From Marsupella aquatica (lineage: Eukaryota > Plantae > Marchantiophyta): a DNA stretch of 64,000 nucleotides. Positions within the stretch are counted from its first letter, which is position 1. Each line of letters starts with the position of its first letter. Below the pieces are notes generated by a model that saw nothing but the letters and a program-made list of their open reading frames with translations, was not told where the DNA came from and searched no databases. Below, piece after piece: positions 12,806-51,163 of this stretch. The DNA lies in NCBI GenBank assembly GCA_973895155.1, contig OZ316894.1:1690457-1754456 (forward strand), read 5' to 3'. Made by a program: the position numbers and the translations under genes.

Positions 12806-13341
12806 TTTCTCTTCACCATGATGAGGAGATGGAGAGAAAGAATCCAAATTAAAATCCTTCCAAAACCCGGAATTCCCAAATCCGGAAATCTTAATCAAGT
12901 CGCAAACTTCCCCTCTCAATCGAACGATCACCCACTTCCCCCGTAACGAACTTCCTTTCAACTATTGCCTTGAAACGGCAGCCTCGTCCGGCTCTAAACT
13001 CTCCTATGAGTCCTCGCAAAAGATTTCTGCAACAGTTCGGTGGTGTGAGGAATGCTCGGTGTGGCGTGGTCTTAAGAACTCGGTTGCCAACTTCCGGTCT
13101 CCGGTCAGATGTCAGACTTATGGTTTTAATAATCATTCTCCCACGCCTACTCGCATGGCTCAACGGTGTCGTTACTTAAGAGTTCCAAAAAAGGTGCTAT
13201 CCGGATATTTCCGGATTTGATACTGAAAAGTAGTTTGTTATGGTCTGTTCCAATCAAAGTATACTCCGTTAACCACTAAAAGTTGAAAATTTTTAAATTT
13301 TTGCACTTTTTAATTTCCTTATTTATAACCATGGTATCACA
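12806..13341 (+). mobile_element. Probable LTR 3' fragment into which the CACTA inserted
   Basis: Ends in TGGTATCACA at 13341, exactly where the tyrosine-recombinase frame of element A is cut. The matching 5' end and TSD are not in the window. Confidence 0.45.
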
Positions 13342-16300
13342 AAGACACAAGAAATACCTACTTGTTTAAACAGAGGGCTGGTCCTCAAGTTGAAAGTCGT
13401 TTCATCGATCTTGACCAGAGAGCTGAACTCTAGACTCTTTCTTACGATGAAGCATTTTGTGAAATGCACGGTACAACCTCATTAAGGTCTGGCTGGGATA
13501 AAGACAACCATCCTTCTTAGTAACCTGTTCAAAAAAATTGGTAAGATACTGCAGTACGTCGCCAAGTAGCAGGTCTTTGAAAGGAGTAGTGACTTCCCAA
13601 CCCTTGAACCTGCGGTACTTCTCAAGACGATCTCGGGCCCACTTATCAACAGCCGCAGAAGGATTCGTGCCACCAGCAGTGATCATCTTCTAGAATCCCT
13701 CATCCTCAACAAGAAACTCAAATGCAGTTTGTCACCTACTTATCAAATGATTAACACAACAAATACCGCTTGGTTTCCACTAAGAATCGTTTGTATCATA
13801 TGACGGGGACGTGGAGGCACGTTATATGGATTAATTTCCTACTAAGGATGAGTAGATTCAAATCCGCTCTCGAAAATGTATTTTTGATCAAGTATACCGA
13901 CTATACGTGTACTCCGCCTTTGATCAAGTCCCATGGACTATCTTGTTCCTACTTCTCCTGGCCTTTGGCAAAGTGCTGTCACCACTCCCCCACTCACAGG
14001 GTCAACCAAACCATGTAAATTTTTCTAAACATTCATGCTAGGGGAAGAACACAATCGTGCAACAAAGAGAGAGAACGCCACACAAGAATTTATGAGAATC
14101 CAACCGAATCTATATCTTTTGGTGTCAACGTAACATATTGCATGGGCAACCCGACCTCTTGCCGTCTGCCCAACTAGCTCCTGCCTCATGGGACAATGAG
14201 CGCCTCTCCACCTCACTACTTTGGATTAATTCTCTACTCTTGTTGAAGGCTAATCCTCAAAACAACAACACTAGACTGAGTTGCCCCTTGCTCCTACCAA
14301 GGGCTACTGGTTCAATACCAAAAAAACAATGCGCAAGCACACAAGCCCTAGGGGGTGTGACGGCGGCCACTACCCTGGCTGGCCGCCATCCACTGGCGGC
14401 GCCTCTAACCTATAAGTTTTCTACACATGCGGCACACCCATGCACTCATAACCCTATTGCTACTCATAGACAGCCAACGGTGCCTTTGTCGGCCACCACA
14501 TCAACTAAGCAAAAACTAGACTAAGTCCTATATAGGCCATGGTCTGCCTTGCTACTACGTGGCTACCTCTACCTCCCACTACCCTGGCCATGAGAATTGT
14601 TGAGAGCAAAAGTTTCTTGAAATCTGGTCCTGAGAAATTTTCTGAATAGCCATTGCCATCCTGATCGTAACCCCCAAAACGGCTCCCAAAATGAACATGA
14701 TCAGACGCCCGAGATATGGCTTACCGAGTCTTGGGTTCTACCCCGGCCATCATCACGTCCAGGTCATCTGTACGGTCCCGACCTCCCATCAGGAAATCAT
14801 AGGAGGTACCCTGGCCAAGGCCGCATGCCAAGATTTGGCCAGGGCACTCTCCTGAGTGATGTATGGACGTCCGTACGGTGCCGGACCCCAATTTTTTGGC
14901 CAAAACGCTCTGGTCCATATCTTCCTCATTTTAACTCTATTTGGGGCGTGTCTTACCTTGTTGGATTCAACTCGGTGAGCTCTTTCCAATAAGCCTATAA
15001 GTTCTTGATTCTGAGAAGATTGAAAATTTGACTTTTGTGTGGCCAAGGTCCGTACGGCTCATGTACTAACCTTCATCTAACAACTCGCTTGTAGTAAGAT
15101 CCTCATCTATAGATTGGCCATTGGAACCCTCACTGTCCTCTTGGCTGAGGTCTCCTTGGGCTTGCCCTCCGGTGGCTGGGGCTCTTTTGGGTCCTCCCCA
15201 AGTGCAAGTATACTCCTGGTCGGGGTCCCCAAATGGCCAAGGCTCTTTTGAATTTTCTTATTTTTTAATACTTTTGTGTCTAGCCCATTCCAAAGCTCCT
15301 TTTCCCTATCTCTTCCTGGCTAGGGTCAAAGTGGTGTTTGGCCACTCACACATTTCGACCCAACCCATCATTATCTTAATACTAGGGCCGCTTACAAATG
15401 GATACAAATAAAAAATTAGGCAAGTCCCCAAAAGGCGGCACTAGGCTACGTGCCTTGTCTTGCACCGGCCAACAGCCAATTAATCTTCTTTCTCTGAGGC
15501 TTGGCCAATAACTAAACTCAAGAGGACATAAAAAAGATAGCAACAACTCCCCACATCCATTTTGCATAAAATACCTTTGGCAAGGTTGTAAGAGAACAAA
15601 AGCAAAAAAACCATGACACAAATCTACCTATTTACATTCGTGTGTCACTAATACCCCTTAAAATCATTCTTTGGGGGCATTGGCCCTGTCACACAGTTTG
15701 ACCTTCAACCTAAACAACAACCTATGGACTGATAGGTGACTCTATATTGACACTATCAAGGCCTGCATTGAGCAAATCAAAATGCATTTGCATCTGGTTC
15801 TCATCGAGAGTGAGTATATCAAACATATATGCTAGACACTTGATCAATGTTGTTGGTAGTGGGGAGCCCAAGTGAACGGGAGTTATCTGGTTCTTGGCGA
15901 GAGCCGACATCCCAATGTTGAATGACGAGATTGCCAACGCCTTTGGTGGTGTTGTATTCATCATGTTGCGTTTGTGCCATTCTAGGCAATTAGGATATAG
16001 GCTGGAATATATCCTCAGTATGAATGTAGCTCAATGTAACCGCACGCATGAGCAATGGCATGCAATAGTCCTCAAAATCACTTACCTCCCACCGTGACTA
16101 AGATCTGTGAGCAGATAACCTCTTTCAAATGCCACGATCTGCAGAGATGAGCACAAAAAGTGATTCAGTTAGCACTCACAAAATGCAACTGGACCTTGTA
16201 ACATATGACACATTTGAGGAAGCAAAATGGCAACAACAGAAGTACTTACGTTTGTCAACAAAGATTGAATGTGTATAGCATGGACTGAAATTCAAAGGAA

Positions 16301-17042
16301 AAGCAACAGAAACTCACAAAGAAACTCGCAAACTATTGCATGAAAGGAAAAAAACAAGAGAAAGGAATGTGTTGTTGCAAAGCCTTCACCAAACACCAAG
16401 CGTCCTGGACAAAAAATGGTCGAGCACATCGACAAAAGTCGAAGAACAAAGCAAAGCGGCACAAAAAAACATGCAGAAAGCTGATCATTGAAATCCCGAC
16501 TGAAAGCTAAACAAACAATGGCTAAAAGCTGAACACGCAAAATGCACTATTGCAAAGCCTACATAAACAAACGACACCGCACGACTGATCGAAACACCAA
16601 ACACCAAGCGTCCTGGATGAAAATTGGTCAAGCACATTGACAAATGTCAAGGAACAAAGCAAAGCAACACAAACAAAACATGGCTGAGAGCTGAACGTTG
16701 AATGAACGACGGCTGAAAGCTGAATGCGCGGTCTGAGCGAGAACTGACAGATTGAGCGCAGATTGAGCACGGACTGAGAGAATTGGTCGACCAAATCCAC
16801 ACTGAACAACCAACAATGGCCAGATGAAGTCGGCCCTAATAAACCTAATCGGGTCTTCCAATTCAACGGTGCGATGTTGTCAACAGATGAATTTGCCATC
16901 CCCACCATCCAATCCTACATTGATCGGGATAGTCCGTTGCATGAATGACATCCCCTTCTTCTTAACGTATAGCTCAGGCTGCACCCCTAATCCCTTTATC
17001 GGATATTAAGTCTCCCATATATGGTCTCCCCGTATACGTGGG
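13342..17042 (-). mobile_element. Crypton-like tyrosine-recombinase element A (degenerate, 3' part removed, split by a solo LTR)
   Basis: The minus-strand translation VEGQT|AFEFLVEDEGF*KMITAGGTNPSAAVDKWARDRL..RRFKGW..FFEQVTKKDGCLYPSQTLM.LYRAFH..SPLFKQVGISCV is co-linear with element B. Upstream homology at 15.7-16.1 kb. Inverted arm at 16961-17037. Confidence 0.8.
13730..15693. mobile_element. Solo LTR (1964 bp)
   Basis: CAGTT (13725-13729) TGTCAC...CCTGTCACA CAGTT (15694-15698). Excision restores the recombinase frame VEGQTAFEFL. Confidence 0.85.
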
Positions 17043-21460: not shown

Positions 21461-21721
21461 ATGGGTTGACCATATACGGTTGCCTATAATATCCCATAAA
21501 GGGATAGTAGTGGACCTTAACAATATACGTTAAGGGTCGTGGGGTGTCTTTAATGCCTCTCGGTTTACCAGAGCTTGCCACTAGAAAACTTTATATCTCA
21601 TTATTTGTGGTTGTATTTGGGGTGTATTTATACACACAACATTTATGGATACAGAGTTTTCAAAAACACAAATACTTAAATAAGGAGAAATCCCATAGTA
21701 GGGGATAAGAATTTATTCATA

Positions 21722-24292
21722 CTAGCTCAATACTCGTGCGTTGCACAAAAGAAGTTGTGTCGGCCAAGATGTCATTGAGAAAAAATGATGCGTGTCAGCC
21801 AAGAGGTCGTGGAGAGAGAAGATGTTGTGTCGGCCAAGAGGTCGTGGAGAGAAAAGATGTTGTGTCATCCAAGAGGTCGTGGAGAGAAAAGATGTTGTGT
21901 TAGCCAAGATGTCGTTGAGAAAAAGGATGTCATGTCGGCCAAGAGGTCGTTGAGAGAAAAGATGTTGTCTCGCCCAAAAGGTCATTGAGAGTAACTTAGA
22001 TGTTGTGTTGCCCAAGAGGCCGCTAAGAGAAAAGAAGTTGTGTTGGCCAAGATGTCGTTGAGAAAAAAAGATGTCCTGTTGGCCAAGAGGTTGTTGAAAG
22101 AAAAGATGTCATGTCGGCAAAGACATTATTAAGGGAAAAGATGTCATGTCGGCCAAGACATTGTTCAGGGAAAATACCCGTGCGTTGCACAAAAGATGTT
22201 AAGAAAAAAGATGTCGTGTCGCCCAAGATGTTGTTATGTGAAAGATGTCACAAATTAAAAAGATGTCGTTAAGAAAAAAGAAGTCATTTTTGCCAAAGAT
22301 GCCATTATGTGAAAGATGTTGAATGTTAGGAAAAAGGTGTCATTTTGCCAATGATATTGTGAAGTAAAAGTTGTTATTAAGAAAAATGGTGTCATTTCAC
22401 CCAAGCTATCATTATGTGAAAAATGTTATGAAGTAAAAAGTCAAGGAAAGAAGGAGCGAGTCTTTTTCTTTGTTTTATTTTTTTACCCAAAATGCCCCTT
22501 CATTTGAATGGCGACCACTCTATAAATTGGCGCAACGTTATATTATCAATTTCAGGTTTAGTGTTTTAGGGTTTAGGGTTTAGCAAAGATGATCATTCTA
22601 TCGGTATCCTTTCAATCCCCATGCATTGCATAAAAGATGTTGTTGAGAAATAGATAGTCGTGCAAAAGATATCGTTGAATAATTTTTTTTTGAAAATATA
22701 TTATTGCACAAAAAGTTTTGTTGAGTGAAAGATATCATTGTGCAAAATACTGGCTACATCAGCCACACAAGTTCCATTTTCTTTTTTCTCCTTGCACACA
22801 AAATTCTTGAATAAAAGATGTCATTACACAAAAGACTGGCTATGACAATCACAAAAGTATAACAAAATGAGAGGTGTTTTTTTCTTCTTTTTCTTTTAAA
22901 ACATTTTTCTCTTATATTCCTTTTAAACATAACAGTTTTTTATTGATCTAGTGACTAAAATATTATTAACAATTAAGCTCCTCTTACCACTATTATACAA
23001 AATTATGCATTTTTGAAACTGCTATATGGTGAATTCACCTTTCAGATTTTGTCTTATTCAAAGTTTTGGTGTCATATATTTTTATTTCAATGTGCCTTAT
23101 CAAGGGGTAGCCTGTGTATCATATACACTTTTCATTATTTCAATGTGCCTTATCAAGGGGCAGCCTGTGCATCATATACATTTTTAATTATTTTATGGAC
23201 CCCTTTAATTTTTAATTTTTAGAATTCTAAAGTATTTTGAACTTATTTTGGCAGCCCCTTTATAAATTTTAATGTTTGTGATTTATTAGAGATGAAATGA
23301 ATGGCTCCACCACTTGAACATTCTCATGAATGATAGAAATGATTTTGATTGTGTCTTAAAGTTGTTCTCATGTCTTTCTTTCCTAAGTTTATGGTTTTTA
23401 TTGTAATGAGTGTTATTCATGAGGACATTGAATTAAGTGTACACATCATAGCATCCTTGATTGTACTTTTCATTGTGCACCAATCCTTCTAGTTATGTTC
23501 TCATATTTTATTTACTTTTAAATCAGTACAAGACAAAAACTCAAGCATGTTCCACGATGAACATGCTATACTATATGCACACAATATTGAACATGTACAA
23601 TACTTACTTGTATATGAATATATACAATATTTAGTTCCAGGGATCATGGAGTGAGTATCCTCCTTGATCCTAGTGCATTCATTTTTTGTTGGTGTCTAGT
23701 GTGATTATTGGCTTGTCTTGGACAATGGTCTAACTTTTTGTGAGTCACACTAAACTCAATTCACACTTTGTCATTATTATTTACCTTTTGATCAGATTTT
23801 TAAAAAACATTTCAGGTTGCAAATTTGAATGAAAATCTTACTAATAAAGCCCGAACTTCAGCCTACTTTTCACAAGCTAGGGTCTAGAGTGAAGCCTCTA
23901 GACCATAACTCTCTGGTCATCATGTGCATGGTCATCATATACATGGGAAAAACTTATGACATGACTATGATGTATATACATGTCAATTTTATGTGATAAT
24001 TTTTAAATATTTACATTAAAAAAAATATAGGTAGTATGGCCCCACCACAACATATGTGCATTGAACATGGATGTGCAAACAAAAAACCTGCGCACATCAA
24101 GGAGAATGATATATTATATATGACTATTAAAATGATGGGGTTTTTTTATCATTTCATTAATCTTCAAAGAATATGAATTAAAAATAGATTTTGATAATTC
24201 TTTATTGTCCTCTCTGCTATTCACGTTCAAAGAACGGGTAATCGGGGCTAGTCGCTCTAAAAAGTGACGCACCTATATATTATAGTTTAGGA
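21722..24292 (-). mobile_element. Non-autonomous Helitron (2571 bp)
   Basis: The minus strand starts TCCTAAACTATAATATATAGG and ends GTGCAACGCAC hairpin + GAGTATTGAG + CTAG. It sits between A and T with no TSD and has no RepHel ORF. Confidence 0.85.
21750..22440. repeat. Degenerate ~30-bp minisatellite (GGCCAAGAGGTCGTGGAGAGAAAAGATGTTGTGTC-like) inside the Helitron 3' region
   Basis: About 20 progressively decaying units. Includes a second copy of the Helitron hairpin at ~22177-22190. Confidence 0.8.
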
Positions 24293-24370
24293 TGTAATGC
24301 AAAATTTTCGCGGGTCCACCATATAGGGTCGCCTAGAATATCCCATAAAGGGATAGTAGCGGACCTTAAT

Positions 24371-25026
24371 AGGGCGTCTCAAATATGAGGCGTCTTGGAC
24401 TTTTCGCCGGACCGGGGGACAGCGGTCAGGGACAAGAGCCAAAAGGTGGTCGGTCGCCCATTTTTGTGACCGCTATTTTGTGTCCGGACGAGTTGCCGTG
24501 ACCGTGAACTTCCAGCCAAGGTAGCCAGTGACTGCCCGTCTGCCAAACATTTTGAGAGGCGACCATGTCTATCTCTGTGTCTAGTTGCGAGTCAATCACA
24601 AAATCTGTCACCTGCGAATTGAGTGTTCCTGGAATTGAAGTTTGAGAATCAGGCAAAAATGAATTGGCCATGGTGCAATCCACTTGCTGGAGTTGTACCG
24701 GCAGAAACACTCGAGATGGTAGTGGGATCGCAGATCATCACAGAGTGGAATGCGGAGCATGCAAAATGTCTTGGTCAGGCATAGTGCAACGCATCAAGGT
24801 TTGCGGAGTGGTTAAAAAGGCTGAAATATTTTTCTGCGGGCAACCCTCTAACCCACTGTTAAACTAGGCTTTAACCCAAGGTAGAGTGGCCCGTGGACCC
24901 TCTCAAAACAACGCACCCCTGCACGGATGTGTTCCGAGAATAGGGACCCGGACAGCCTTTCGGACCTCCTTTTTTACGGGCAGAAGTCCGGACACGACGT
25001 TGGGGATAGCATATTTGAGACACCCT
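24371..25026. mobile_element. MITE (656 bp) with 17-bp TIRs and AAT TSD
   Basis: AAT AGGGCGTCTCAAATATG ... CATATTTGAGACACCCT AAT. The homologous empty site is visible at 21512-21535. Confidence 0.85.
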
Positions 25027-25449
25027 AATAGTATACGTTAAGGTCATTGGGTGGGTGTAATGTTTTTTGGGGCTTTAGGCTGCTGCCACGTTAGCACTTT
25101 TTGGGTGGATGATATCTCATTATTTTATACCGTATATTTATACGGTTCACATACGGCCAACATAACTTTTTTTGAAAATGAAAACTCCCGCGGTGGAGAG
25201 ACTTGAAACTTTATTGATAACAGGAAATAATTACATCAATAAGGGTCATATGACCAATTCAAGACAGTATAAAGCCTATGTATATACATGATTGATTGAG
25301 GGTTGTCTGACAAAACCCGTGTTCAGGCTATAATATCTATGTCTAATATGCCTCGTAAGTACTGAGCACAATGCCATGCGGGCCAACTACAATGAGTTCT
25401 ACACTCACGGTATAAGCCTATGTCTACAAGCTAGTAACTACCACTGACA

Positions 25450-26976
25450 TTAGTTCCCTAACTTCCCGATAGAAATCAAAATAGTGCAATTGTTGATGGA
25501 CTGCACTTTAGTGAAGAGTGCCTGCACTGGATTAACAACAACAGAGCTTGGCCGCAAGTTCTCAAAATGCTCATCCCAGTTGTAGTCGTCAACCCATCCG
25601 TCATCCCTCCAGTCGACCTCACCATCTGCATTCACACCACAAGATAATTCACTCTCAGTTAAGGGAGCCAATTCAATCACCATAGGAACCATCTCATTTA
25701 GAGGAGTCGTCATCTCAGTTGTGGCAGGGGTCTGAATCTCTGCTGGACCCATTGTTGGAGCAATGTCTGCACCAGGTCACAAAATTACACTAATTAGTGA
25801 CTGCAGATATTTAGCAGACAATATCAAAAGGCTGCGGATCGATCGACATTACAAAGATTCCACAAGATTACCTTCACCTCCCTTCTTGCGTTTGTGAGGC
25901 GAGACATCGTCATCATCTCCATTGACCACCTTCTGCTTGAAGCGTTCTGTCTCCTCATGAAAATTTGCTTCAAAACTGGATGAGCCATTGGCACATTTCT
26001 GGGTTGCTATAACCTTCGACTCTGTGCTGCGATCGTATCGGGCGTAGGCACCTTGGCTCTTATGGCCTATGATAATCATCCCAACTTCTGCAGGAACGCC
26101 TTCAGTCGCTATGCGAGTCACACAAGTGGTCCTGCCAGATTTGTTAGTGACACCATTTGTAACCAAACCACACTCCCGATGAATCTCCTTGAGAATACCA
26201 CTCAACTTCTTCACAGACACGCGCTGAGTCGAGTACCATGCATGAGTCCGAGGGCTATCTATGCATTGGTAAAATAGAAATATGCCTGCAACAGGCAAAT
26301 GAGAAATCAAACTCTCGACCGTCTCAACCATGGAACTATCGTAGCTGGTTACAACAGGCCAAAAATGCTCATCCTGATACCGACCGAGACCAACTTTGTA
26401 GTTCTTTGATAGACGCTCATCATATCTTACGAACCATCCAGTCTCATTGCATCCAATTTCGAAGTCTGTCTTCGCCAACCGATGCAACTCATCACCTCCA
26501 CGAATGGCAAATTGAAACAGAAGGAAATACATTGCACGACGCTGTAGGCCACGAGGGTAAATAGTGGCTGTGCAAGGGTGAGATAATATAGTGGCCTCAT
26601 CAGCCAATGAGATGATAGATGCCTTTTTACGAGGAAAATTAGCACCATTAGATCTTGACCGCTCCATCGCTAACACGCAAGCAATGCCAACTTGCTTAAA
26701 CAGAGGACTCTCGCACATATGAAATATGGGCTCGTCCATCCCTGTTTGTACAATTCGAACTTCCTGTCGGCGCCTCAATACTCGATGAAACGCACGGTAC
26801 AGTCCCATTAACGTCTGGGTCGGATATAAGCTGTCGTCCTTCTTACAAATTTGCTCAAAAAACTTGATTAGGATTGATGCACATTCAGCCAAAGAGAGAT
26901 CCTCGAATGGAACACTCGCATCCCACCCTTTAAACTCTCGAAATTGAGTCAATCGATTGATTGCCCATCGATCCAC
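25450..26976 (-). CDS. Tyrosine recombinase (Crypton/DUF3504-like), with one intron; N-terminal extension to ~27340 carries an in-frame stop at 27022-27024
   Basis: Catalytic layout FAIRGGDEL (R), LSKN (K), TNKSGRTT (HxxR position, H->K), IIGHKS (H), YARYDR (Y). Upstream motif KKDDSLYP..TL. A phase-1 GT-AG intron at 25871-25767 joins the 25766-25450 exon in frame. Confidence 0.8.
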
Positions 26977-28051
26977 AGGAGCGCTTGGGTTAGAACCGCC
27001 CTCGGCAAGGGTCTTTTGGAACTATGGATCTTCTGCAAGAAACTCTACAGTTGCTTGGCCCTGAACTTCGATCACAATCGGGTCTTTCTTGGGACGCTCA
27101 TCTACATGTAAGCTGTCTAAACTCGCATTCAGCTGTTGCAGCTCTGCCATACAATTGTCACCAAATGTGCAATCATTCGAGGAACTACTCATTGTGTCGT
27201 CAACGATAGCAGCGCCTTTCATCATTGACATCCCTATGCTAAATGATGGCCTGTCCATCCAAATCAACAATGCACAAACTAGGAGGTCCTCCAACAGCTT
27301 CAATTCACCAACCTGCAGTTGCATATGGACAGTCCATGGCAATAGCAGTTAGAGCAGATAAAGCGACAATGACCAGATTGCACATAAGAAAATGAGTTAG
27401 CAAGCATAGCAAGACAAATGTGACCCGGCCCTCTCAGCGCCTCTGGCCCGCCAACCTCCACATACGTGTACAATCCATGGCTGGAATCGGCAGCAAGAAC
27501 CGATGGCAAGAGCATTCAACTCGTCCTCCAATGCTTCTCGCTCGGCACCCTGTAGGCGCACACAACTATCCATGAATTTAGACCAAACAACGTCATCAAA
27601 CGGAGAATGCGACATGATTTATCAACATAAACCAATGCACAAACAAATCTGCAAGCAATAGTGTGACCCAGCCCTCCAACACCTCCGGCTCGCCAACCTC
27701 CAGTCGCGCATCAACAAGGTAATATGCAGCAATGTGAGTAGCGAAATCAATCAATCTCCCGATAGTGAGCCGCTGGCAACACGAAGTATACACGACAACT
27801 CAAGAGCGCAGTGCACCGGGAGCACAACACCAATCTACAAATCTACGGAACATCTGCGACATAATGACAAATACCTGAATAGTGAGCGCCATATAGCTGG
27901 CGGCCTCTGGTTGGCATTTGACCTAAGCCGTTCGATTAGCCCGCCCTAGCTCCTTTCAATCGGAGCTGTCCATCAGTTTTCACGACCCTGACACAGCACG
28001 ACGCTTGGAAGGCCATCCATTCCTCCCGATGTAATCTCCGTCGTTCGTTTT

Positions 28052-28199
28052 GATCCTTAACGTTGATTAGGGGCTCGGCCCTCCCCATAATGGGGTACGG
28101 GTCTACGCGTATGCGTCGGCCCACAGGGCCTCCACATACGCTCGACCGTATACCCCATTATGGGACGGGTAGAGCCCTTAATCCTATACGTTTTGGGAT
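28052..28199. repeat. Long imperfect palindrome (~60-bp arms)
   Basis: GATTAGGGGCTCGGCCCTCCCCATAATGGGGTACGGGTCTACGCGTATG pairs with CATACGCTCGACCGTATACCCCATTATGGGACGGGTAGAGCCCTTAATC. Confidence 0.85.
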
Positions 28200-30038
28200 G
28201 GCATCAAAGCCCTCCCGCCCTTCCCTCGCCGCTACTCGCCTACTCTCTCAGTGGCACACTCCATGATCCAGCAGAGCCTCAGAACTTCCCGGTATGCCAC
28301 CGGATAGGGTTGTGCATCGCCTCTGAACATTGAGGATATCTGCAAAGAGATGTGGTCGGCTCGGCTCTCCCTCTCTTGGACTTTTCTTCCCTTTTTACTT
28401 TTGCTGTTCTCTAACAGGTTCGACAGGAAGTTTTCGAAACAACAATAGGACAAACCGACTATCCGTTAAATTCCACTGCGAGGATCTACCGTAGATTTTT
28501 TAGAATTTAGTTCAGGTTCGGATCTCCGGAAGACCATGGCCGTGTCTTTTGGTCAATCGATTGACTAGAACACTTTTACAGAGCATGGTCGGATAGGGGA
28601 ATCTTTAGTTTTGGATTTATAAACTTTTTGTAGGTCCGCCTGCGACCAAAGGCTGCAGATTGATGGTGAAAGTTAGACGAGGTTAGGCGTCTAGCTTGAA
28701 CAGGGAAGCAAGATACTGGCCTTGTGTTGACGAAGTACACTTCCTGTTTTAACTGCAGGCTCTAGAGTATCCATCCTGTCGAAGGCCTAATCGATATCCA
28801 TCCTGTAGAAGGCCTAATCGATACGTGAGTTCACAGAGTTGAGGACAAACAAGGGAACGCATTTAAGTAGGCGAAACGAGACCAGACTGAGAAAATACAA
28901 GGTCGGACGACAGCCATACACCCAGTTAAGCTCCTATTGAGGCAAGCTAATCGTCTCTTCAACTCAAACTCAACATTTCCGAGCTGCACTTTGGGTACGT
29001 TTGATAGGTTTTCGTGGTTGCCTGCAGTCGGTGCTTCTCTCGGTAAAAATGCTTTGTTGAGGTATTTTGTTACCCACCTTTGCATGAATGGGAGGTGCTG
29101 AGGTCTTCGGTTTTCAGATCTCCCGTGTCAGTGAAGGCCGCAAGTGCAATTTGACGGAATCTATGGATCGCGTAGGAAGTGTGAACTCTACTTAGTGGAT
29201 TTCAGTGGAAACTTTGCCTTCTGTTTGGTCCCGGGGTATTGCATATTGCTTGGAAGAAAGTGAGGTCAATTTTAATTCTGCACGGACAGATCTGATAGTC
29301 CAAGGCCTTTTTGTCCAGTTCTGGTAGTCCTGCTTGTCTAGCTTCTTATGGACTCACTTGTAGCTCTGCACTCTTCAACTGCTCAGCGATGATGAACAAA
29401 GAAACCAGACTTTTCTTTCCCCACTCCATTTTCACAGATACTAAGAAAGTTTTCTGGGTTTTGCCACCCTCGAACCCAGGTCCTCAACACCCGCGGCTAC
29501 TAGTGTGAAGTTGAAGACTTTACTCTTGCACCTAACGCTAAGTCTTGGGTTACTTTTTGAGTTGACAGGATATCTATCTATGGATCGAAGAGATAGTTCT
29601 CCGGGCTTTGCACTGCATCTTCCGCGGTTCACTAAAAAGGCGACTGACCTCCGTTCTGATCTCCCTTCTATTCATACAGATAGATTCGAGCCTTTAAACT
29701 AATAAAATCTACCAAAGGTGAAAACTATCTCCAGGTTGCAATTGAAATATATATCACCTCCTAACGTTTTTAAGCTCAGAGGCTCCTGGAACCGGCTGGG
29801 CTTGATTAGTAAGTGTGCACTGGGGAATCTGTCCTAACTAACATTGGGCATATCGTTCTATACTTAGATCTGGCAGTTCTTCATTTGATGTACGCTCGAT
29901 CCTACACTGCTAGTGCGGCTCCAGCTTTCGCGTCATAGACATACCAGTGACATTTGTGTGAGGACGCCTCCGAGCTTCGATACTGTTATGGTAATTGTTG
30001 ACCTCTTTCCAATGCGTGCCTGGTCGGACTGCAGATTC

Positions 30039-33000
30039 ATGGCGGTGGTAAGTGAAGTCGTTGCAGTATGCAGTTCAATCCTCGGCATTGTGTCAAAGAT
30101 CGACAATGTCAAGGAAGACTGGTTCACTGCATCAGCCGAGTACCAAAGTGAAGCGGAAATCCTCCGCTCAAGGCTCATCTCCTACGTGGAGCAAGTCCGT
30201 ATCCATCAGCAACCAGTGGATAGTACTATGATGAAGACTTTGAAGAGAGCCGAATCAACATTGAAGAGGGCGGAAGCAAGATTGACCAGCTTGGAAGAAA
30301 GCGTCGACAGCAACCAGTGCTGTTCGCAAATCTGGTGGTTGTATGCAAAGGTGACCATGACCCTTTTCCCAGAGAAATTAGAAAGCACATTGAAGAAGGT
30401 GAACCAGGACCTTGATGGCATCCCCAAGATACTCAAGGACGAACAGGAACTCTCTGGTCTACTGCGAGAAGCAGGCAAGAGTCGAGCCATCTCTACAGTT
30501 GTCCACAATAACGATAATAAATATGTGCCAATAGAAAAGTCACAGTCTGCGGTCATTCAAGCCATTGAAAATTCTGACGGCCCTCCCATGATACTACTGC
30601 ATGGTGGAGTAGGTAAAGGCAAGTCCACTCTTGCCAGATACATGTGTGAGCGCTACGGGCAATTTGGAGAAAAACAAGGCCTCTTTGATCACGTGATTGT
30701 GGTGTCGTGTGCTAATAGCTCCATAATTGATCTTGCCACCAAGCAATATGAAATCTTGGAGCAGCTTAGTCCGGCGAGTTTAACGGAGGAAAGCCGCTCA
30801 AAATCTGGAACTGGAAAATCTGGGGAGAGTATGGGCTCAAAGTCTAGAATTGCAGAAGCTCTGCAAAAGTTCTTCATTGGCAAGAAGGTTTTGATGGTCT
30901 TAGACGACGTTTCAGATAAGGGATTTCTGTACAAAATGTGGGAGGCTGCGAGAGATGGTAAAGATGATAAGATCCTCATCACTTCCCAATTGTCGAACAT
31001 ATGCGATGACTTTAAACATGACTCTTTGCTTATTACGATGGAAGATCCTACCAAAGAGGAAGCGAGACAGATCCTTGCTTCTCTTGTGGGGCTGGAGAGT
31101 AATCGAATTCCTGAGAATATACAGGTTAGTTCCCCTCAAGCACATTTCACCTTGGTCGTTTATTGAGGAGGTACGTGTTTTGTTAAAATGTCCGTTGTAT
31201 TTCTTTTTAATATCTACCAACTAAATTTAGTCCTCACTGTTTTATCTTTGTATGCAGGGGATAGCAGATGAGATGATCAAAGCTACAGCGGGAAATCCCT
31301 TAGCTTTGGCATGTTTGGCAAGTAACTTTGCTTATGCAAAGCATGCTAAAGATAAAACAAAGAAGCGGGATTGGCAAGCTGCTTGGACAGAGTTATCTCA
31401 GTTGCTAGGCAATAAAGCGATGGCTATCGTGGTAGGGCAGAATAGTGAGACTGCAGCTAGAAGCCTGTCGGGTGCTATGAAGATTTGTATAGATTCTCTT
31501 CAAACAGAGGATGCAAAACACACACTGTTCCTAATGTATGCATGTAAAGGAGAATCGGTTCCTGAAGAGGTTCTGCGGATTTTGTGCTCTAGTAAGATGT
31601 CAAATTCTACATTCAAGCGGTCCATAGATGAATTGTCTATGCGAGAGCTACTGAAGCCTACGACTGATACATTAGCATCTAAGATGAACTTGGAGAAGGA
31701 ACCAAATGTCGAGGAGTCTCCTGCATGGTTGCTACAGTCTTTAGTGAAGCTCTTTATGGAAAGGCATCTGGTTGGGAAACAGGAAATGAGTGCAGTGATT
31801 GGGGCCTTGGTTGGCGATGACGAGTTTCCACCTGAGTCGAGCTCCAAATACAAGGTAGAGGACTATGAACAGGAAATAGTGAAGATTACAACCGGGACTG
31901 GAACAGAAACCACGGAGAGTGATGAGATGAGGGTGACAATCGCTCTGTGTGCTCTGTACTTTGACCGCCGCCATACCGATCAAGGCGTGACTCGAGCTGT
32001 GGCTAAGGCTTCCAAAATATCCAATCTTGAAGATTCGGATGAGAACATCAATGATCTGAGGAGGAAGGCGATTGAGCCGTTGATATGGCTTCTCGACAAG
32101 CCTGAAGAGGACGACGAATGGACGAAAAGCGATAAATGCTGTGTGAGGAAGGTAGTGTCCTGTCCCCTTGAGTATGTTCTTTCGTTTGCAACTTATGTCA
32201 GTCCAAATTGAGGTTAGGGAATCATTCGAGTAACTCTAATACTTCGGCACTCACAGATCTAACAGTTCACATGTTTGCGCATGACCGATTGAGTCAAAGT
32301 TTACTAGCCGTACTTTCAGCCATTGTTTGCAGTTGCCACTTCTTTTGAAAATCAAGGACGGTTCTGTGTAAACTATACAAATTCGACTTCTCCCGTGAAA
32401 TTACTGTTTGATAGCACGTGGCTATGAGGTAAACGCAAGTATTATTTATCTTGTAAGTCTACTGTACAGAATAACAATTTAGGTTCTATATGTGATAGTT
32501 TCTAAAATCAGAGGTCGAGTCTAAGAAGCATGATTTCTTAGACGAGCCATGTGTCTTGGTGAACTTTGTTTGCCTTGTTATTTCACATGATTTCTTGGAA
32601 ATCGTAACAGTTCTGATCTATATTAAACCAATCGCGGTTGTTTCAAGTGATGTTGTGTCACTGAATTGTTTTGGACTTGTGAATCACTTACTTTGCAGGT
32701 TGTTCTTGACTACATATGCAAGCGCCAGCTAAACAACGAGAACATCATTTACCTGTTGAAGTTGGCTGCTGGTCCTGCTGTACAGCTGGCCACTCTCAAG
32801 GCTATCGCTCACATTACATCAATAGAAGAAACACCCCTGCTCAAAGAAAACACAGTCCAGTTTTTACAAGCTGTGGTCGACCTTTTGCATTTGAAGGAGG
32901 GTTTACACACTGGCGTTCAAGAGGCGGCCTCTACGGCACTACGTCGTGTTTGTTGGAAGGCCGCGGGTGACAAATCAGCAACCCTTGTTGCTAACATGTC

Positions 33001-35310
33001 GTCTGTTCTGGACGTGTTGGTACACTCCCTTGCCATTCCCGTTTGGGAGTCAGAGGCTTTTGCCGAAAACGCAGCATATGCTTTGAAGGGCTTAGCATTC
33101 TCGGAGGAAGAGGACATTGAACAAATAATTGTGAACAAACAGGACCTACTAGCTAGTCTTGTGAATTGCTTGTCTCAGAATTCCACGCCTAGTTTGCAAA
33201 AAGCCGCAGCAGGGGCTTTGGAAAATCTAGCTTGCACTCAAGATGACGCTGTCAAGCTGAGAATCGCCAATGAAGAAGGGGCTGTAATTGCCCTTGCGAA
33301 TTGCTTGTCGAAGGATGAAAATCCCCACTTACAAATACGAGCAGCAGCGGCTCTACGAAATCTAGCTTCTTCGAACGATGACTTTTGCAAGTTGAGAATC
33401 GTTAATGAGAAGGGGGCTCTAGTTGACCTCGCGAATTGCTTGTCAAAGCATGACAATTGTGAGTTACAAATAAAAGCAGCAGGGCTCCTGCGAAATCTAG
33501 CTTGGACTCTAGATGACTCTCTTAAGTGGAGAATCGCCAATGAGAACGGGGCTCTAGTTGGCCTCGCAAATTGCTTGTCAAAGCATGACAATCGCGAGTT
33601 ACAAATAAAAGCAGCAGGGGTCCTGCGAAATCTAGCTTGGACTCTAGATGACTCTCTCAAGTTGAGAATCGCCAATGAGAAGGGGGCTCTGGTTGGCCTC
33701 GCAAATTGCTTGTCAAAGCATGACAGTCGCGAGTTACAAATAGAAGCTGCCGCGGCTCTGCGAAGTCTAGCTTTTTCAAAAGATGACTCTCTCAAGTCGA
33801 GAATCACCGATGAGAAGGGGGCTCTGGTTGGCCTCGTCAATGTCTTGTCAAAGAATGACAGTCGCCAGTTACAGATACAAGCTGCTGGGGCTCTGCGAAA
33901 TCTAGCTTGGACTCCAGATGACACTCTCAAGTTGAGAATCGCCAATGAGAAGGGGGCTCTAGTTCGACTCGCGAACTGCTTGCGAAAGCGTGACAATTGC
34001 GAGTTACAAATAGAAGCTGCAGGGGCTCTGCGAAATCTAGCTTTTACAAAGGACGACTCTCTCAAGTTGAGAATCGCCAATGAGAATGGGGCTCTGGTTG
34101 GCCTCGTAAATTGCTTGTCACAATGTGCGAACCCTGATGTGCAAAGAGAGGCAACAATAGTGATATCAAACCTAGCTCTTGCTCCAGATGGAAAGGCGAT
34201 CCTTCAAGGAGCGGAAGGTCTGTTGCAGGGCCTTACAAGCTTGGTGGAAGATGACGTGCGTCGGGATATTCGAAGTTCAGCAGTACAAGCGCTGTTTCGA
34301 ATAGACCTGACACTAGCTAAGGAAGTGGGGTTGCTCTCGGCACAACTAGATGGCAAAGCTTTAAGGTATGGTCGTGAATTCTTAATTGATTTCGAGCACA
34401 ACCTAGATTGTATAAAGTTCGATGGAAGGGAACAAGATCATGCAACAAAGTGGCCAGTGTAAAAAAAGAATTCCGTAGTGAGTAACGAAGCTAAGGGCAA
34501 TATCTGTACAGAGGCTAGTTTATCGTGCAGCAAGATACTACACTATACTAACCATTCTGCCTAATCAGCTGACCTGACAAGCTCAGTTGGATAGATAATT
34601 AACCTATACTTGATTCGAGGGTTCAACTAGCGGAAGAGTTCAGAATTTCCAGAATTTGGTAGACCTTTTCCCTCGTTTGTCTCTTGATCTGCCTCGGTTA
34701 GCAGGCAAGCGAATTTGTGGCCAGCATTTTGACGATAAGATTGGGAGTTTTCTTAGCATTGCAGATTCCAGCCGATGATTTATTGTACCATAGTTTGGAA
34801 GCGTCCAAGCCTAGTGGCGTTGGATAGGATAACACAGCTACACTTGAAATATGGTAGTAGCCGGAGTTGAGAAGGGAGGTTGAACATGTTGACATCCAAC
34901 TGCACGTGAATGTTTTGCAGCGTACATTAACTAAGTTTCATATTTGTGCTTGCAGTCATAGAATTTTTGTAAAAGCAAAATTTGGAGACTTTGAAGGGGC
35001 ACTGGATGATGCCAACGAGGCAATCACGATGCCGGATGGCGAGAGGTTTTTTATCTTGCAGGAGAGAGGTGTCTTGAAACGAATGATGGAAGACCTTGAG
35101 GGAGCCCTGGCTGATTTGGAGGAAGGATTAAAACTAGAAACGAATGACTACGAGATGCTGAAGCATCGTGGTTATGTCAAATCCTTGTTAAATGACGTGG
35201 AAGGCGCTCGAGCAGATGCAGAGTGGGCTCTATCGATCCAATCCTCAAGGGATGACAGCGATGACTACTTGGGAGCAACCCCTGTAGAATACTTGGGCTA
35301 CAAGCTGTAG
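30039..35310 (+). CDS. Non-canonical NLR-like STAND protein copy 1: 4-helix/RPW8-like CC + NB-ARC + Armadillo repeats (7 core units) + TPR; 1333 aa
   Basis: Exons 30039-31124, 31258-32151, 32699-34365, 34956-35310, all GT-AG with matching phases (4002 nt). Walker A GGVGKGKST, Walker B KKVLMVLDDV, RNBS-B KILITSQ, GLPL-like GNPLAL. ARM units of type LANCLS..N..LQ..AA..LRNLA. TPR exon GDFEGALDDANEAI / EDLEGALADLEEGL / NDVEGARADAEWAL. Confidence 0.9.
33158..34102 (+). repeat. Seven tandem 135-bp (45-aa) Armadillo repeats with high internal DNA identity
   Basis: Exact 135-bp period with recurring AATTGCTTGTCAAAG...GAGTTACAAATA...CGAAATCTAGCT...AAGTTGAGAATCGCCAATGAG. Confidence 0.95.
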
Positions 35311-37537: not shown

Positions 37538-39805
37538 AGCAGTGGAACAGATACAGAGAACTGTGGAGTGTTGCGCGTTGAATCAAAGTAGTGAAAAGCT
37601 GCGCTGAACCACGCCGTGGATTACCCTCTAAGCGAATGATGAAGCTTGAAGATGAGTTTTAAGTCACTCCTTGCTCATCAATGTTCGTTCTCTCTCGATG
37701 ATCATCTATCTTATGATATTTTACTCACTGCTATTTCCTACTGTGAAATTGATCTGCTCTATAATCTCGTACTTTTCCACTTGAAGAAGGCTTGAACGCT
37801 GTGAAATTGAATTTTAATGTAGTTGACCCGTGTGTATCTTTTGCAAGGTCATAGATCCTGGGCGTCTGAGTGAAGCACTGTCGGGACCTTTGAAACCCTC
37901 TCTGAATGGGGCCACTTCGGCAGGGGCTGCAGATGGGAATGTTAGGACCCCCCCTGAGAGTCCTGGCGCGGATGGAGGGAAAGATGGGTAACTGGATTCA
38001 ATACTTGCCGCTGTAAGTTTGTTACTCCTCCAAATTATGCTGTTCTGCTCGATTAAACTATCCCCGGATTAACAAACTCTGCAACCTCTTTGTCTGTGAT
38101 AAATGCGTTGTGTCTCTTCGTAAACCATTTAATTGTGACCAGCAAATCATCACTTGCTACCTCTGTGGCTTTGAGAGTAATCCGCAAAGATCGGGTGTGC
38201 AATGCAATTTGACCGCTGCTCACGTGAGTCCTAACATTGGTGCCGTGCAGGTGAAGCTTCTTTTTGCTGGAGAGAGCAAGTTATGTGACCAGATATTCTA
38301 TCATCTAGACCGACATCGAGAAATGGCCTTTGCAAAAGTCACGGAATCAAATACTACCATGCTTACCAGCTTTGCGGATGCCATTGCTAGAAGCAAAAAG
38401 TCACGAGAAAAGCTGTTTGTTCTGCTGGACATGTATGAGACCATGCGTGACCTTTCGCCAGACGTTTGTAGAAACCTTATCCTTCTGACATACTGTAAAT
38501 GTTTTTTATGTGCTGAAAACTTTGGTTGTTCATTTTTGGGTGTAGTTGGTACTAGGGTAGCTTGCTGGGAACCAGACCTGCTACCGCAGTTCTTATATCA
38601 CAGTTCCTGGAAATTGGTTAATTGTGAAATGCTTTCCAACCAACCAAAATCAAACCCGTTCTTTCTGAAGCTGATGGGATCTTGCATTCCAATTGACAGA
38701 TTGAATTAATCTGATCAGGAGAATAATGCGGCAGGCACACGTGAAGTGGCCAGTAATTTGTTGACGACTGCGAGTGATACACGCAATTGAATTGATGCAA
38801 CAAAGGCTCCTGTTAATGATGGAACTGTCAAACCGCTTACAAGCTTTGTCATCAATTACCTCAAGTTTCTGCTTACGTAAGTCCTTCCGTTCCTCAGTGA
38901 AAAGTTTTTGTTGCCCACATGATGGGCGTGAGAGTCTGATGAAGTAGATATTATGGTTATTGATTGGTACCCCTACACCACTACTCCGCTTTATCAGAAT
39001 GTCAAACCAGTGACTCGTTGCCATTTCGAATTTTTGTCAATGTAACTTTCTAAACTTTTTGTTGGTCCTCTCGTTCTCTTTTGAAGTAATCTTTTGAAGT
39101 AATCTTTGCTACATGAGTTTGCCGAAGGGCGTTCATCCAAGCGAGGTTTTGACACCAAGATACCACGATGCACAGGATTGCGGAGTCTTGTGGTTTGCTC
39201 GGCCACTACAGTACTGAAGCAACTGTTTGGGGAAATGGACAGTGGAGAAAACTCAAATTCCAAGCTGGCAACTTCTGTGAATCTGATCATCCAAAGTGCT
39301 CCAAAGCAACTCAGATTAGAAATCAAAGCTCTGGATCCGGCTCTCACTCAGCTCTTTCTTCTCAACAATATTCACTACATGATGAGATCTGTCCGAAGGT
39401 GGGTTGGCAAACGAATGCCTCACTAGCAAAGCCTGGATTGTGAACTAGTTTGCCATTTCTTTTTAGTTCAGCGTTTTCTACTTGTGACGGAAAGGCAGCA
39501 GGTTTACTTGCGTACATAAGAATTTGATTTCTGCAAGATTATATTTCCAATTTTTATCCTGTGCAATTAACAATTGATCGTGTGTGAGATTGCTGATTGG
39601 TGTCATATTTCTCGGTTGTTCTGGTAAACTATTTTCTTCTGACTTCATAGTTCGCCAGTGAATGCCTCAACCATCAGTCACACATGAAACTACATTTATA
39701 TTTGCAGGTCGGAAGCGAAAGAGTTGTTGGGATGATAGGGTGTAACGACATCTACAACTTGTGCAGCAGCATGCATCTATATGTTAGTGGTCTGCCTGGG
39801 GAAGG
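37538..39805 (+). pseudogene. EXO70A: Exocyst subunit Exo70A partial pseudogene (intron-containing, middle exons)
   Basis: MMKLEDEFKSLL; VKLLFAGESKLCDQIF...DAIARSKKSREKLFVLLDMYETMR; DATKAPVNDGTVKPLTSFVINYLKFL; DPALTQLFLLNNIHYMMRSVRR|SEAKELLG**. These match Exo70A1 motifs but carry stops and frameshifts. Confidence 0.85.
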
Positions 39806-42800
39806 TTATCGTTGTGGTATCAGTACTGATTGCTTTGCGACGTTGCTGTAGTTAGAGGGACTATTCAAGCGTTAGATGCTTTCTTTAATAAGAGACCAAA
39901 GGAACTCTTTAAGTATCATCCAGTCGTAGATGTCCTTCTACAGTAGTGCTCCGAGACAGCGCGACATAATTAAATATTTTGAATGGGGACATTGCCTCAC
40001 TGAGTTAGTGTACGAGCACAAAAAGCATTTGGTCCGCAGGGAAAATTGTTGTTTCCGAATTCCCTTTCCTAAGTCAGATCGACCAGATGCATTGGCCATA
40101 CAAAACAATGGAATATTCCTTTTCAATCTTTGAGTCTATGCGGTCCTATTTTCAAAATCAGCTTCCAGAGCAGAGGTATAGTTTTCTGTTTGGAAATTGA
40201 TGCGATCGATTGGCTGCTGTCCGAGGGAGGCTGCGTACAAATTTCTCGGTACCCATTGATCTCATCCCGTTGCCTAGGATTTGTAGTCAACTACAACCTC
40301 TGCTTCTCGACCGTTTACTGTTTGGGCTTGAATGACATCCATTGGCACAAATGTTTTAATCTTTTTCTTAGCAAGTACTCTCGAGTTCCCTGTGTTACCT
40401 CAAGTTTCAATTACCGCCAGGCCCGGTTAACTTTGCCATTGCCATCTTTTCTCAGACGTGTGTTCATCAGTCTGCTATTCTGAAGGCGCAGGACTGCATT
40501 TGTAGGAACGAAATTATCCTAAGCTGCACGAAACCGCTCAAGAGAAAAAGGCCACGGTCTGTCACTGTACCAAACATCTCTAGTGTGGAAGCCATGGCGA
40601 GCACAGGATTCTAAGTCAATTACCATCCCAGAATGGTCCTAGCTTGAGAGCTCACTTAAATGCCAGGACGCTTCGAATACGTTTACTTAGTTTGTTCCAA
40701 ACTCAAGCTAATCCCAGAATGTCACTTACCTGGGACTATAGTCCTCAGAACTTTCCCGTGTACAACCTGATAGGATTATGGATCCCCAACGTTCATCGAG
40801 TTTGTCCACTTGCGAATTGCTGTGGTCAGCTCTCCTTTCCTTGGACTTTTCTCCCTTTTTTCCGGCAGTTCCCTTATCCGTTAGACAGAAAGTTTTTGAA
40901 ATAAAAAAGAGACAAAAAAGTCTTTTCACATGTCGACATCCCTGCAGAACGACTGTATGCGTTGCTCAATGTCCCAGGAGATTGTGAAGAATTTAACCCA
41001 GAGTCGGATCTCGTGGAAGAACATGGCCGTGCCTGTTGGTCAATCGATTGACTGAACGAACCATCTGTCGTATTGTCGAGTAGGAGAATCTTTAGTCTAT
41101 TATTTATTAATACTTTGTGGGTCCGCCTGCCGGCGAGCAAAGGCTGCAGAGTGATGCTGAAAGGTGAGGGAGGCTGGCGTGGTGTTGACGAAGTGCACTT
41201 CCTGTTGCTCCTACAGGCTCTAGTACGAGAGATTCTTAGTTGACAGGAAATCCATCGATCGAACAGAGAGTTCTCGGGGCTTTGCACTGCATCTTCCGTA
41301 GTTCCATGAGGAAACTTATCCCCGAATTTATCCTTAATGTTTGCAGCACATTCGATGTCCAAACGTTGTAGCGAGATCCTTCTCCAAAGGGATGGCTATT
41401 GTACGAAGTCGGTGTGGCCTCCAAGACATAGCTTCAGAGCACTCTGAAATGGTTTGCAGGTCTGCACCCTTTTCGTTTCGACACTCCAATTTCATAGAGT
41501 AGAAACTTCTCTGGGTATGGCAATGCTTCGATTGGGCCGGGGTGGCTCGATCAGCCCGGGATACAGTAACTACAGTAGCTCGACAGTTAACTGATCTTTC
41601 CTTCCTTCCCCACAACCGATATCCTAGAACTAGTAGATATACAGTGAAGCTGAAAACTTTCCTCTTGCACGAAGACTAAGTCTAACATTGTAATTGCGGC
41701 GGCCTTGCTACGGGCGCATCTCCTTACCAGTAGTCTTGGGTTGCATCTGTTTGTGCGGGTGTGGGTATTGGGGCCGCAGTTCACTAGACAGGCGCTTGAC
41801 CTTCTCACCGTTCTGATCTACCTTCTCTGCATCCAGATAGATTCGAGCTTTCAAAGTAATAAAATCTACTTAAGTTGAAAACTGTGTCGTGCTTGCAATT
41901 GAGAGAGTGGGTCGATTATAATTGCCGGTGCATATTGTTTACAGCACTCTATGTGTGTGAGGGGAAGGGGGACCGGGCTCTTGGTGAAGGGTGATATACA
42001 CTTTGCAGTCTACAGACACTTTAATGGCGTCGAAGATCACAGTCATCCAGCATGGGTCCAAATTACCTTTTGCAGGCTCCTGCTCACGACAATCTAGGCG
42101 GATCTTGTGGCGTCCAAACTCTTCTCCAGGACTGCACAGCTGAAAGTAACCTGCTCCATTTGCTGTCGCTCCACCGATTGGGCTGGAAAGCACGGCTGAA
42201 CTTGATTAGTGTGCAATTGGGACGGATGATATCGGACATCGGCTATATCGTTCTATACCTAGATCTAGACGGTCAGCATCTGATGTATGCTCGATCCTAC
42301 ACCACTAGTGCCGCTCCAGTTTTCAGTCGTTATGATTCGAGGTCTCGCAAATTCATAGCCGTGCTAGGCATCACCTTGATGATCCTTGTGACCCTTGTCT
42401 ATGCCAACCATACCCAATTACTCCAAGCTCTCTTGGAACCTTTGATCTGATTAAGTGTCACTCCGAATCTGATGAAGCAGATGAGCATTTCACTGGCTCT
42501 TGGAAGTGGTGGGGACAACTCTTGTTGGGTTAGTAATGGTTCAACTCAACAGGGGTTCTCCCTGAATCATGAGGATGCAGCATTGCTCAAATATTAAGGA
42601 CACATAACTCCGGCGACGAACTAAGTACGCGGGTAAGGCCACTCCACGAAGAAATACATTTTTTTCTGCAAGACATTCATGTCCAATGGTAGTAGCGAAT
42701 TCGTTTTCCAAACGACATCGCTATTATGCGGTTTCGGTGGCCTCATAGACATAGCAGCGACGTTAATGTGTGAAGCCCTCCGAGCTTAGATACTGTTATC

Positions 42801-42848
42801 GTAATCGCTGACGGATTTCTAATCCGTGCCTGGTCGGACTGCAGATTC

Positions 42849-50258: not shown

Positions 50259-51163
50259 TCGAACTTCTCTGTTTTACAGTTCTTCGTATTTTCCCGCAGT
50301 CCTTTTTTAGTAAATTCTATGTTGATGCAGTTTGTGCAATCGCCACAGTTGCACGAAGATGTGAGATCAAAGTCTTCCTTTCCACAAGCTCTTCAGTAGT
50401 GATTTCCCTGCGCGCAATTCGAAGCTAGCAATTAATCACGTAGGAAGCATAGCTCAGTCGACTTCGTGCATACCGAGTTGCCGAGTTCAGTGAGAACTTC
50501 GCCTTGACTTTGGACCGGGGTATTGCCAGATTGCATTATGCAGATACAAATGTGGGAGATCAAGCGTGTGTTGATGTATAACACCAGCCCGAATAAACTG
50601 AGGTCAAGTTGAGTTCGGGAGTGACAGCCCTCCCTCGCCGCACGCAGGTATTCTGGCCGTGCATAATTAGTCAACTTGTTTCTGCTGTAGAGCAGGCCTC
50701 AATTTCATCGAACATTGAGGTCGCCGTTTCTGCAATCTGAAATTCTACAGCTCGAACCTTCAATTCAGGTCGCCGGAGATGGTCATTACCGACGTTGGCC
50801 GCAAGGTATGTGTTGTTCATACATGTTGAGTGAGCTTGCACTAGGACCATATCTGTACTTCAATCGTCGAGCTTGTCTTTGCATTGCCCTAGCCCTCTCC
50901 TTCATTCAGCACGTACTCGACAGAACTTGTAATGGTTGCAGCTCTGCAGATCTATTTTGTTTCGACAAATAGAGTAGAAACTTTTCTGGGTATTGCAATG
51001 CCTCGATTAGCCCGTGATGCCTCGATCAGATCGGGATGCAGTATGTACAGGAGCTCGACAGTGAAGTGATGTTTCTTTCCTTCCGGAGCGTTGATCTCTT
51101 AGAACTTAGTAGATCTACTTTTACGAGAAGTCTTGGGTTGCATTTGTGTGTGTGGGTACGTGT

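Follow-up and report, generated by a model that had tools for sequence, protein, structure and literature searches.

The 64,000-nucleotide stretch of Marsupella aquatica DNA analysed here, which we refer to as the window, carries a tyrosine-recombinase (YR) gene on its minus strand, from 27258 to 25450, with the catalytic residues in the order R-K-K-R-H-Y. The gene belongs to an element with terminal repeats, copy 1 below, which lies near remnants of its relatives. The flanks of the window are of plant type, with Pfam matches to NB-ARC, ARM and SSB domains and to a CACTA tnp2 transposase. The coordinates of the features are collected in Table 1.

Table 1. Features of the YR element and its relatives in the window
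Feature	Position	Strand	Remarks
Copy 2, YR 5′ fragment	13288..13761	-	frameshift near 13405; without catalytic domain
Repeat upstream of copy 2	16959..17031	-	placed like its counterpart in copy 1; leave-one-out E 7e-7
Third relative, non-coding, left end	21463..21640	+	repeat 82% identical to copy 1 left repeat; ~100 bp of interior
Element copy 1	24312..28122	-	~3.1 kb without the MITE; terminal repeats; right end may reach 28192
Left terminal repeat, ~75 bp	24312..25043	+	split by the MITE; palindromic core GACCTTAA-N9-TTAAGGTC
MITE, 654 bp	24372..25025	.	16-bp TIRs, TAATA on both sides; within the left-repeat core
YR exon 2	25450..25766	-	acidic tail; terminal N-x-C-hydrophobic motif, common to liverwort and fern relatives
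Likely intron, 105 nt	25871-25767	-	GT-AG; in-frame stops inside; splicing predicted
YR exon 1	25872..27258	-	ATG at 27258; core-binding and catalytic domains
Y408	26035-26037	-	catalytic set
H399	26062-26064	-	catalytic set
R376	26131-26133	-	catalytic set
K373	26140-26142	-	His in other YRs; motif TNKSGR (K-x-x-R)
K285	26404-26406	-	catalytic set
R253	26500-26502	-	catalytic set
In-frame TAG, codon 79	27022..27024	-	upstream of the recombinase domains; relatives read through there
Right terminal repeat	28052..28122	-	inverted relative to left repeat; leave-one-out nhmmer E 7e-4
Outer repeat at right end	28126..28199	+	three bases beyond right repeat (CCC-ACA-GGG junction), facing outward

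The original prediction, made from the sequence alone, described a spliced YR gene with an R-K-(K)xxR-H-Y layout. All six residues can be located on the minus strand, and the splicing is likely: joining across the predicted intron continues the frame into a C-terminal exon that can be aligned with the relatives, and aligned contigs of related copies have indels at 25773-25809, within this intron. The start codon is most likely the ATG at 27258, the point at which residue 1 of six relatives aligns. The gene had been drawn from 25450 to 27620; its extent holds as far as this ATG, but 27400-27620 has no coding support. We discarded a candidate coding exon further upstream, at 27400-27616, as it lacks homology and no relative protein aligned upstream of 27276. 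The earlier reading also overlooked a nonsense codon, the terminal repeats and the fragmentary nature of copy 2. As codon 79 is a TAG inside the YR frame, copy 1 is likely dead; downstream of it the frame is open for 390 codons (27021-25849, minus strand).

The proposed searches with the DUF3504 and Phage_integrase models matched both families, each below its cut-off (Phage_integrase with an E-value of 0.003, DUF3504 with an E-value of 0.019 and 15.4 bits against a Pfam cut-off of 29.7). Reverse transcriptase (RT), RNase H and DDE transposase domains had no match in any of the 104 stop-free frames of at least 55 amino acids between 12.5 and 28.4 kb. The claim that RT and RNase H are absent therefore stands for the window. 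GCR1_C had no match in the window protein, the window frames or the scanned relatives, DUF3435 had none in the window protein, and Rfam gave no matches across 12-30 kb of the window.

Terminal repeats and related copies

A repeat of about 75 bp, containing two palindromes, occurs five times in the 64 kb, always between 16.9 and 28.2 kb. Models built from any four of these recover the fifth (E-values from 7e-4 to 5e-13), and the same models find none elsewhere in the window. The two ends of copy 1 (24312, 28122) are degenerate inverted repeats, 48% identical to each other. Contigs of other copies pass 24369 into the same repeat core without the MITE, as loose ends. The core of the left repeat, GACCTTAA-N9-TTAAGGTC, resembles the paired-arm layout of the YR sites described in the available text of PMC3212892, and may be such a site. 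No direct repeat flanking 24312 and 28122 was found. Because no target repeat, empty site or circle junction was seen for copy 1, its exact ends are only inferred, from the inverted repeats; among the matches listed, no contig joint skips the whole element.

The right end can be read in two ways. The right repeat and the outer repeat can fold into a 135-nt hairpin (z -9.0, 0 of 200 shuffles), and the outer repeat may belong to a truncated neighbour, as its left end, or else to the terminus of copy 1. The junction of a right end with a left end at 28122-28126 suggests a head-to-tail insertion beside older copies, and throughout 13-28 kb the repeats and the YR remains all point the same way. The region is most simply read as a head-to-tail cluster of related elements that has decayed; the alternative is a hairpin terminus ending at 28192. 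Two runs have a unitig break at 28163, which could reflect either a terminus at 28192 or a pair of substitutions within the outer repeat. We also attempted to place the right end from the paralogous NB-ARC locus at 40.7 kb, and rejected this as the alignment starts only at 28277.

A second diverged copy had been reported at 13.3-17.0 kb. There is indeed a related YR remnant, 53% identical to copy 1 over 96 amino acids, but it is a frameshifted 5′ fragment from which the whole catalytic domain is missing. The 16.1-17.0 kb stretch, inside the terminal repeat of copy 2, has no similarity to copy 1 above that of shuffled sequences, and only the repeat at 16959-17031 is common to the two.

The element has many related copies. 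In sequencing run X1, 240 contigs aligned to it, with 42 at 99% identity or more, 52 at 95-99%, 53 at 90-95% and 93 below 90%; run X4 also has contigs in all identity bands. The summed depth in X1 is 174-217 over the ORF and 274-297 over the ends, compared with 26 in the flank. Relative to the right flank, depth is raised about 7-12 times in X1 and 12-25 times in X4, a rough ratio and not a copy number. Depth is elevated across both the ORF and the ends, and drops to flank level beyond 28287. A single-copy domesticated gene had been named as one outcome that would speak against a transposon; what the read contigs hold is many diverged copies. A scan of metagenome contigs for relatives of the element found none.

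The recombinase lineage and its Lys-for-His active site

The closest relative of the recombinase is a protein of the liverwort Calypogeia fissa, with 64% identity. A profile search of 1.84 billion representative proteins gave 1927 matches at an E-value of 0.001, the best 150 of which were used. We aligned 162 relatives, near-copies included. At the HxxR site, which is covered by 98 of these, 69 have Lys, 19 His, 6 Arg and 4 another residue. The proposed check on the conservation of NKSGR thus found a conserved NKSxR, with Lys in 69 of the 79 proteins that lack His. The top Atlas clusters are of DUF3504/Phage_integrase type (0.98), and UniRef already names the Ceratodon and Marchantia proteins as DUF3504-containing.

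For the tree, 66 rows passed at 60% cover and 50 at 70% cover after two near-copies of a Ceratodon protein were removed. The final tree has 48 rows, with two long-branch outgroup rows dropped and the motif columns removed. In this tree, which includes no labelled reference Cryptons, no labelled Glomhoppers and no distant root, and whose rows were gathered with a query-built profile that favours a tight query clade, 30 rows of the plant (Lys) clade are split from 18 rows with His, the DUF3504 group, with support of 100/100. The DUF3504 cut-off of Pfam is passed by all 11 outgroup proteins compared with one of 14 plant-clade proteins. None of the 14 plant-clade proteins scanned has an RT domain.

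An organism name was available for 16 of the 22 clade members looked up. All 16 come from seed-free land plants, of the genera Calypogeia, Riccia, Marchantia, Ceratodon, Adiantum (two species), Selaginella and Diphasiastrum, and so span liverworts, a moss, ferns and lycophytes. None of the named matches is algal or from a seed plant, a third round of homologue searching, from a broader alignment, brought in no new taxa, and none of the four His-group proteins looked up has an organism name. The subclades are largely host-structured: those of the fern, the moss, Riccia and the one containing Calypogeia are separate and deep, with Lys common to them. An exception is one Calypogeia protein, placed outside the clade that contains Calypogeia, and the tree gives no resolution at its deeper nodes.

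An AlphaFold model of the window recombinase, built from a 28-row alignment (pLDDT 87), has the predicted two-domain fold of tyrosine recombinases. Its top Foldseek match is Cre (E-value 8e-8). In VIA-align comparisons the model reaches a Z of 18.7 with Cre, over 295 residues covering both domains, 17.2 with XerA and 12.8 with QRICH1. The topoisomerases IB (9.9-12.0, with 6.7 for a vaccinia fragment) and the protelomerases (6.3-8.1) stay below Cre and XerA, so the predicted fold is nearer to Cre, XerA and the integron integrase than to topoisomerase IB or TelA/TelK. A sequence search of the PDB with an alignment of close relatives gave nothing significant.

Topoisomerase IB and protelomerase enzymes have Lys at the position of the HxxR His, and the original prediction compared the TNKSGR motif with these. 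The substitution itself is real, but the comparison is not diagnostic: SSV1-type archaeal integrases, which have been shown to be active, have an R...KxxR...Y site (PMC8371274), and the predicted fold is closest to Cre. Lys is thus compatible with recombinase activity and would need no new chemistry. The SSV1-type integrases are viral and structurally distant from the window protein (Z 7.3 to the model), and the Lys of these enzymes and that of the plant lineage likely arose independently. In intact plant copies Lys is conserved alongside the other five residues, which argues for selection on catalysis.

Probable origin, mobility and host-gene derivatives

We think it quite probable that copy 1 is a dead member of a multi-copy, YR-only element bounded by inverted terminal repeats, that is a Crypton-type DNA transposon, and that its lineage has long been resident in seed-free land plants. 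The earlier suggestion of a poorly described plant YR lineage is supported, in the form of a YR-only, Crypton-like, multi-copy element with a conserved NKSxR. The statement that Cryptons are known mainly from fungi, animals and stramenopiles needs a green alga with active copies added (PMC9977147).

The element presumably works like a Crypton. It is nearest to the DUF3504/CryptonA group, yet fails two features of that group. The two are alike in having a YR-only gene, a Cre-type fold (for our element, a predicted one), non-coding derivatives and domesticated offshoots, and the DUF3504/CryptonA proteins of animals (PMC3212892) are the nearest outgroup in both the profile search and the tree. 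The window element differs in its KxxR, giving an R-K-R-Y instead of an R-H-R-Y tetrad, in scoring below the DUF3504 cut-off and in its land-plant hosts. It also has inverted terminal repeats, whereas the available text of PMC3212892 reports none for animal Cryptons; the Cryptons on record end in short direct repeats or lack terminal repeats altogether, and those of animals are without direct repeats too. CryptonF elements of fungi and Chlamydomonas share YR-only mobility by site-specific recombination (PMC3212892, PMC9977147), but carry a GCR1_C domain and 5-6 bp direct repeats (PMC3212892), and the window element has no GCR1_C match. Starships are also different, with a DUF3435 captain, cargo and a length of tens of kb compared with our ~3 kb element without a DUF3435 match.

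The mobility scheme for Cryptons is Goodwin's model, as cited in PMC3212892 and supported for CryptonF in PMC9977147. By analogy, the recombinase of intact copies would bind the palindromes in both terminal repeats, pair (synapse) the element ends and cleave via a 3′-phosphotyrosine on Y408. A circle with abutted ends would be released, and a second recombination would insert it elsewhere. Contact with the phosphate, usually made by His, would fall to Lys373, as in the SSV1 integrase.

The inverted ends and the self-complementary right end do resemble the anatomy of DIRS elements (PMC13465315), and could be the ITR/ICR-like parts of a DIRS- or Ngaro-type retrotransposon that has lost its RT. 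We consider this highly improbable. DIRS and Ngaro elements require an RT-RNase H ORF; the 104 frames of 12.5-28.4 kb gave no match to RT or RNase H, and none of the 14 plant-clade proteins scanned has an RT domain. The space between the repeats would hardly accommodate such an ORF, the YR gene is likely to contain an intron, and its nearest relatives are of DUF3504/Crypton type. The many diverged copies, the nonsense codon and the TE-rich setting count against a domesticated single-copy host gene or a topoisomerase- or protelomerase-like enzyme that is no transposase. Domesticated relatives do exist, as described below, and one element end can form a long hairpin; the window gene, though, groups with intact-site copies outside the domesticated clade, the modelled fold is closer to Cre, XerA and the integron integrase, and KxxR is present in active integrases of SSV1 type (PMC8371274). 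This alternative is very unlikely in our view.

How the lineage reached its hosts is a related question. The original prediction raised horizontal acquisition, for which a recent donor could be sought among mycorrhizal fungi, with their Glomhoppers, or animals. Outside the clade, the closest relatives are DUF3504 proteins from Atlas clusters that are mostly molluscan or cnidarian, Glomeromycota colonise bryophyte thalli and carry CryptonA elements (PMC13465315), and the named matches include no algal or seed-plant member. Glomhoppers moreover share a DUF3504-type YR, often truncated or intron-containing copies and a location in repeat-rich regions (PMC13465315). They retain the catalytic His, though, and have no identified terminal repeats in the text of that source; its main text does not mention liverworts, Marchantia, Viridiplantae or Streptophyta. 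The closest match to the window gene is a liverwort protein, and Lys is common to all the separate, deep, largely host-structured subclades. A recent transfer is thus not supported, and we regard it as very improbable. That all 16 named members are from seed-free land plants favours old vertical inheritance, and the largely host-structured subclades favour a long vertical residence in which one genome harbours several families. A transfer deep in the past, into the land-plant stem and ahead of the bryophyte-tracheophyte split, may still have occurred.

A candidate active element is found in the moss Ceratodon purpureus. Four of its proteins (P0009, P0011-P0013), of 970-975 amino acids, are 97.4-99.8% identical and have an intact R-K-K-R-H-Y set. 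Their gene names carry the tags KC19_1G and KC19_10G in one assembly, and M758_4G and M758_11G in another. By convention we take 1G, 10G, 4G and 11G to be chromosomes with shared numbering. If so, near-identical proteins with four different chromosome tags suggest recent mobility, the loci being read from gene names and not from DNA.

Other relatives have lost the catalytic set. The M. polymorpha and M. paleacea versions of Marchantia Mp5g04240 (P0029, P0172) share 94.5% identity, and the gene no longer encodes the Lys (NRPGR) or the second His; it is likely a domesticated, catalytically degenerate host gene. In proteins of the lycophytes Selaginella and Diphasiastrum, and in a further protein (together P0044, P0061, P0070, P0091, P0190), the first Arg and the KxxR-H-Y region are missing, and a PAXX-like head with a coiled coil is fused to the catalytically dead recombinase; Selaginella has two paralogues. 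The N-terminal 200 residues of the fusions match PDB 8P26, by its title Arabidopsis PAXX, with an E-value of 6.5e-13. The same entry is the top fold match of a low-confidence model of the fusion protein (pLDDT 44), which serves as a second look only, and Atlas features of the XRCC4/XLF/PAXX clan score below 0.9 and are a lead only. The evidence for the fusion consists of annotated gene models in two genera plus further contigs, and in lycophytes it appears to be kept as a host gene. Streptophyte PAXX proteins listed in Table S2 of 10.1101/2023.05.26.542399 may bear on it.

The Marchantia derivative has no PAXX-like head. It forms one clade with three lycophyte rows (98/94), which suggests a single early domestication, although attraction among degenerate sequences is possible. 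The domesticated Cryptons ZMYM, QRICH1 and KCTD1 of animals offer a parallel, as host genes that retain a catalytically dead DUF3504-type YR alongside further domains. What sets the plant derivatives apart is their origin in the Lys clade and, in lycophytes, the PAXX-like head. A more far-reaching scenario, which we regard as possible though doubtful, is that land plants have a Crypton group of their own that predates the bryophyte-tracheophyte split, has the KxxR site and inverted terminal repeats and is still jumping in Ceratodon. It would have been domesticated once, early, to give Mp5g04240 and the lycophyte fusion with its PAXX end-joining head, so that a transposon-derived DNA-binding module was recruited into plant DNA repair or chromatin, as a parallel to ZMYM and QRICH1.

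The liverwort-moss-fern-lycophyte lineage extends the Crypton group to embryophytes and, from its spread over these plants, is likely more than 450 million years old. Published DUF3504-type Cryptons come from animals and fungi (PMC3212892, PMC13465315). The literature that could be searched, mostly by titles and abstracts and outside Repbase, Dfam and subscription papers, holds no description of land-plant Cryptons or of a PAXX-YR fusion, and Cryptons are absent from those accounts of land-plant TEs that could be searched. The repeats define candidate recombination sites, of which the available text of PMC3212892 and PMC13465315 gives none for DUF3504-type Cryptons. With such sites, and with a transformable moss that carries intact copies of near-identical sequence, the proposed excision and integration mechanism is directly testable, and the lineage could become the source of a site-specific recombinase native to plants. 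If true, the PAXX-like fusion would add a new example of transposon domestication, one that involves a DNA-repair factor.

Neighbouring sequence

The remainder of the window holds further repeats and genes. Remains of a CACTA element (Transposase_21) at 267-12011 include, at 5400-9070, a long ORF that is of a different kind, with a coiled coil and no clear Pfam family; this may be a nested element. A very high-copy repeat at 23400-24253, ending near 24252 and with many loose ends in four runs, is probably a non-autonomous CACTA end, with another copy at 54494-54863. Just inside the left end of the third, non-coding relative there is a tandem array with a 35-bp unit (21715-22440).

To the right of the element lies a tandem gene cluster with NB-ARC, ARM-repeat and TPR-like parts (29889-35310, 42774-47272 and 51103-54407). 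Its first two genes are 88% identical over 3.4 kb, and the architecture is NLR-like with ARM repeats in variable number. Between the NB-ARC paralogues there is a fragmented Exo70 gene (38017-39443), closest to EXO70A1.
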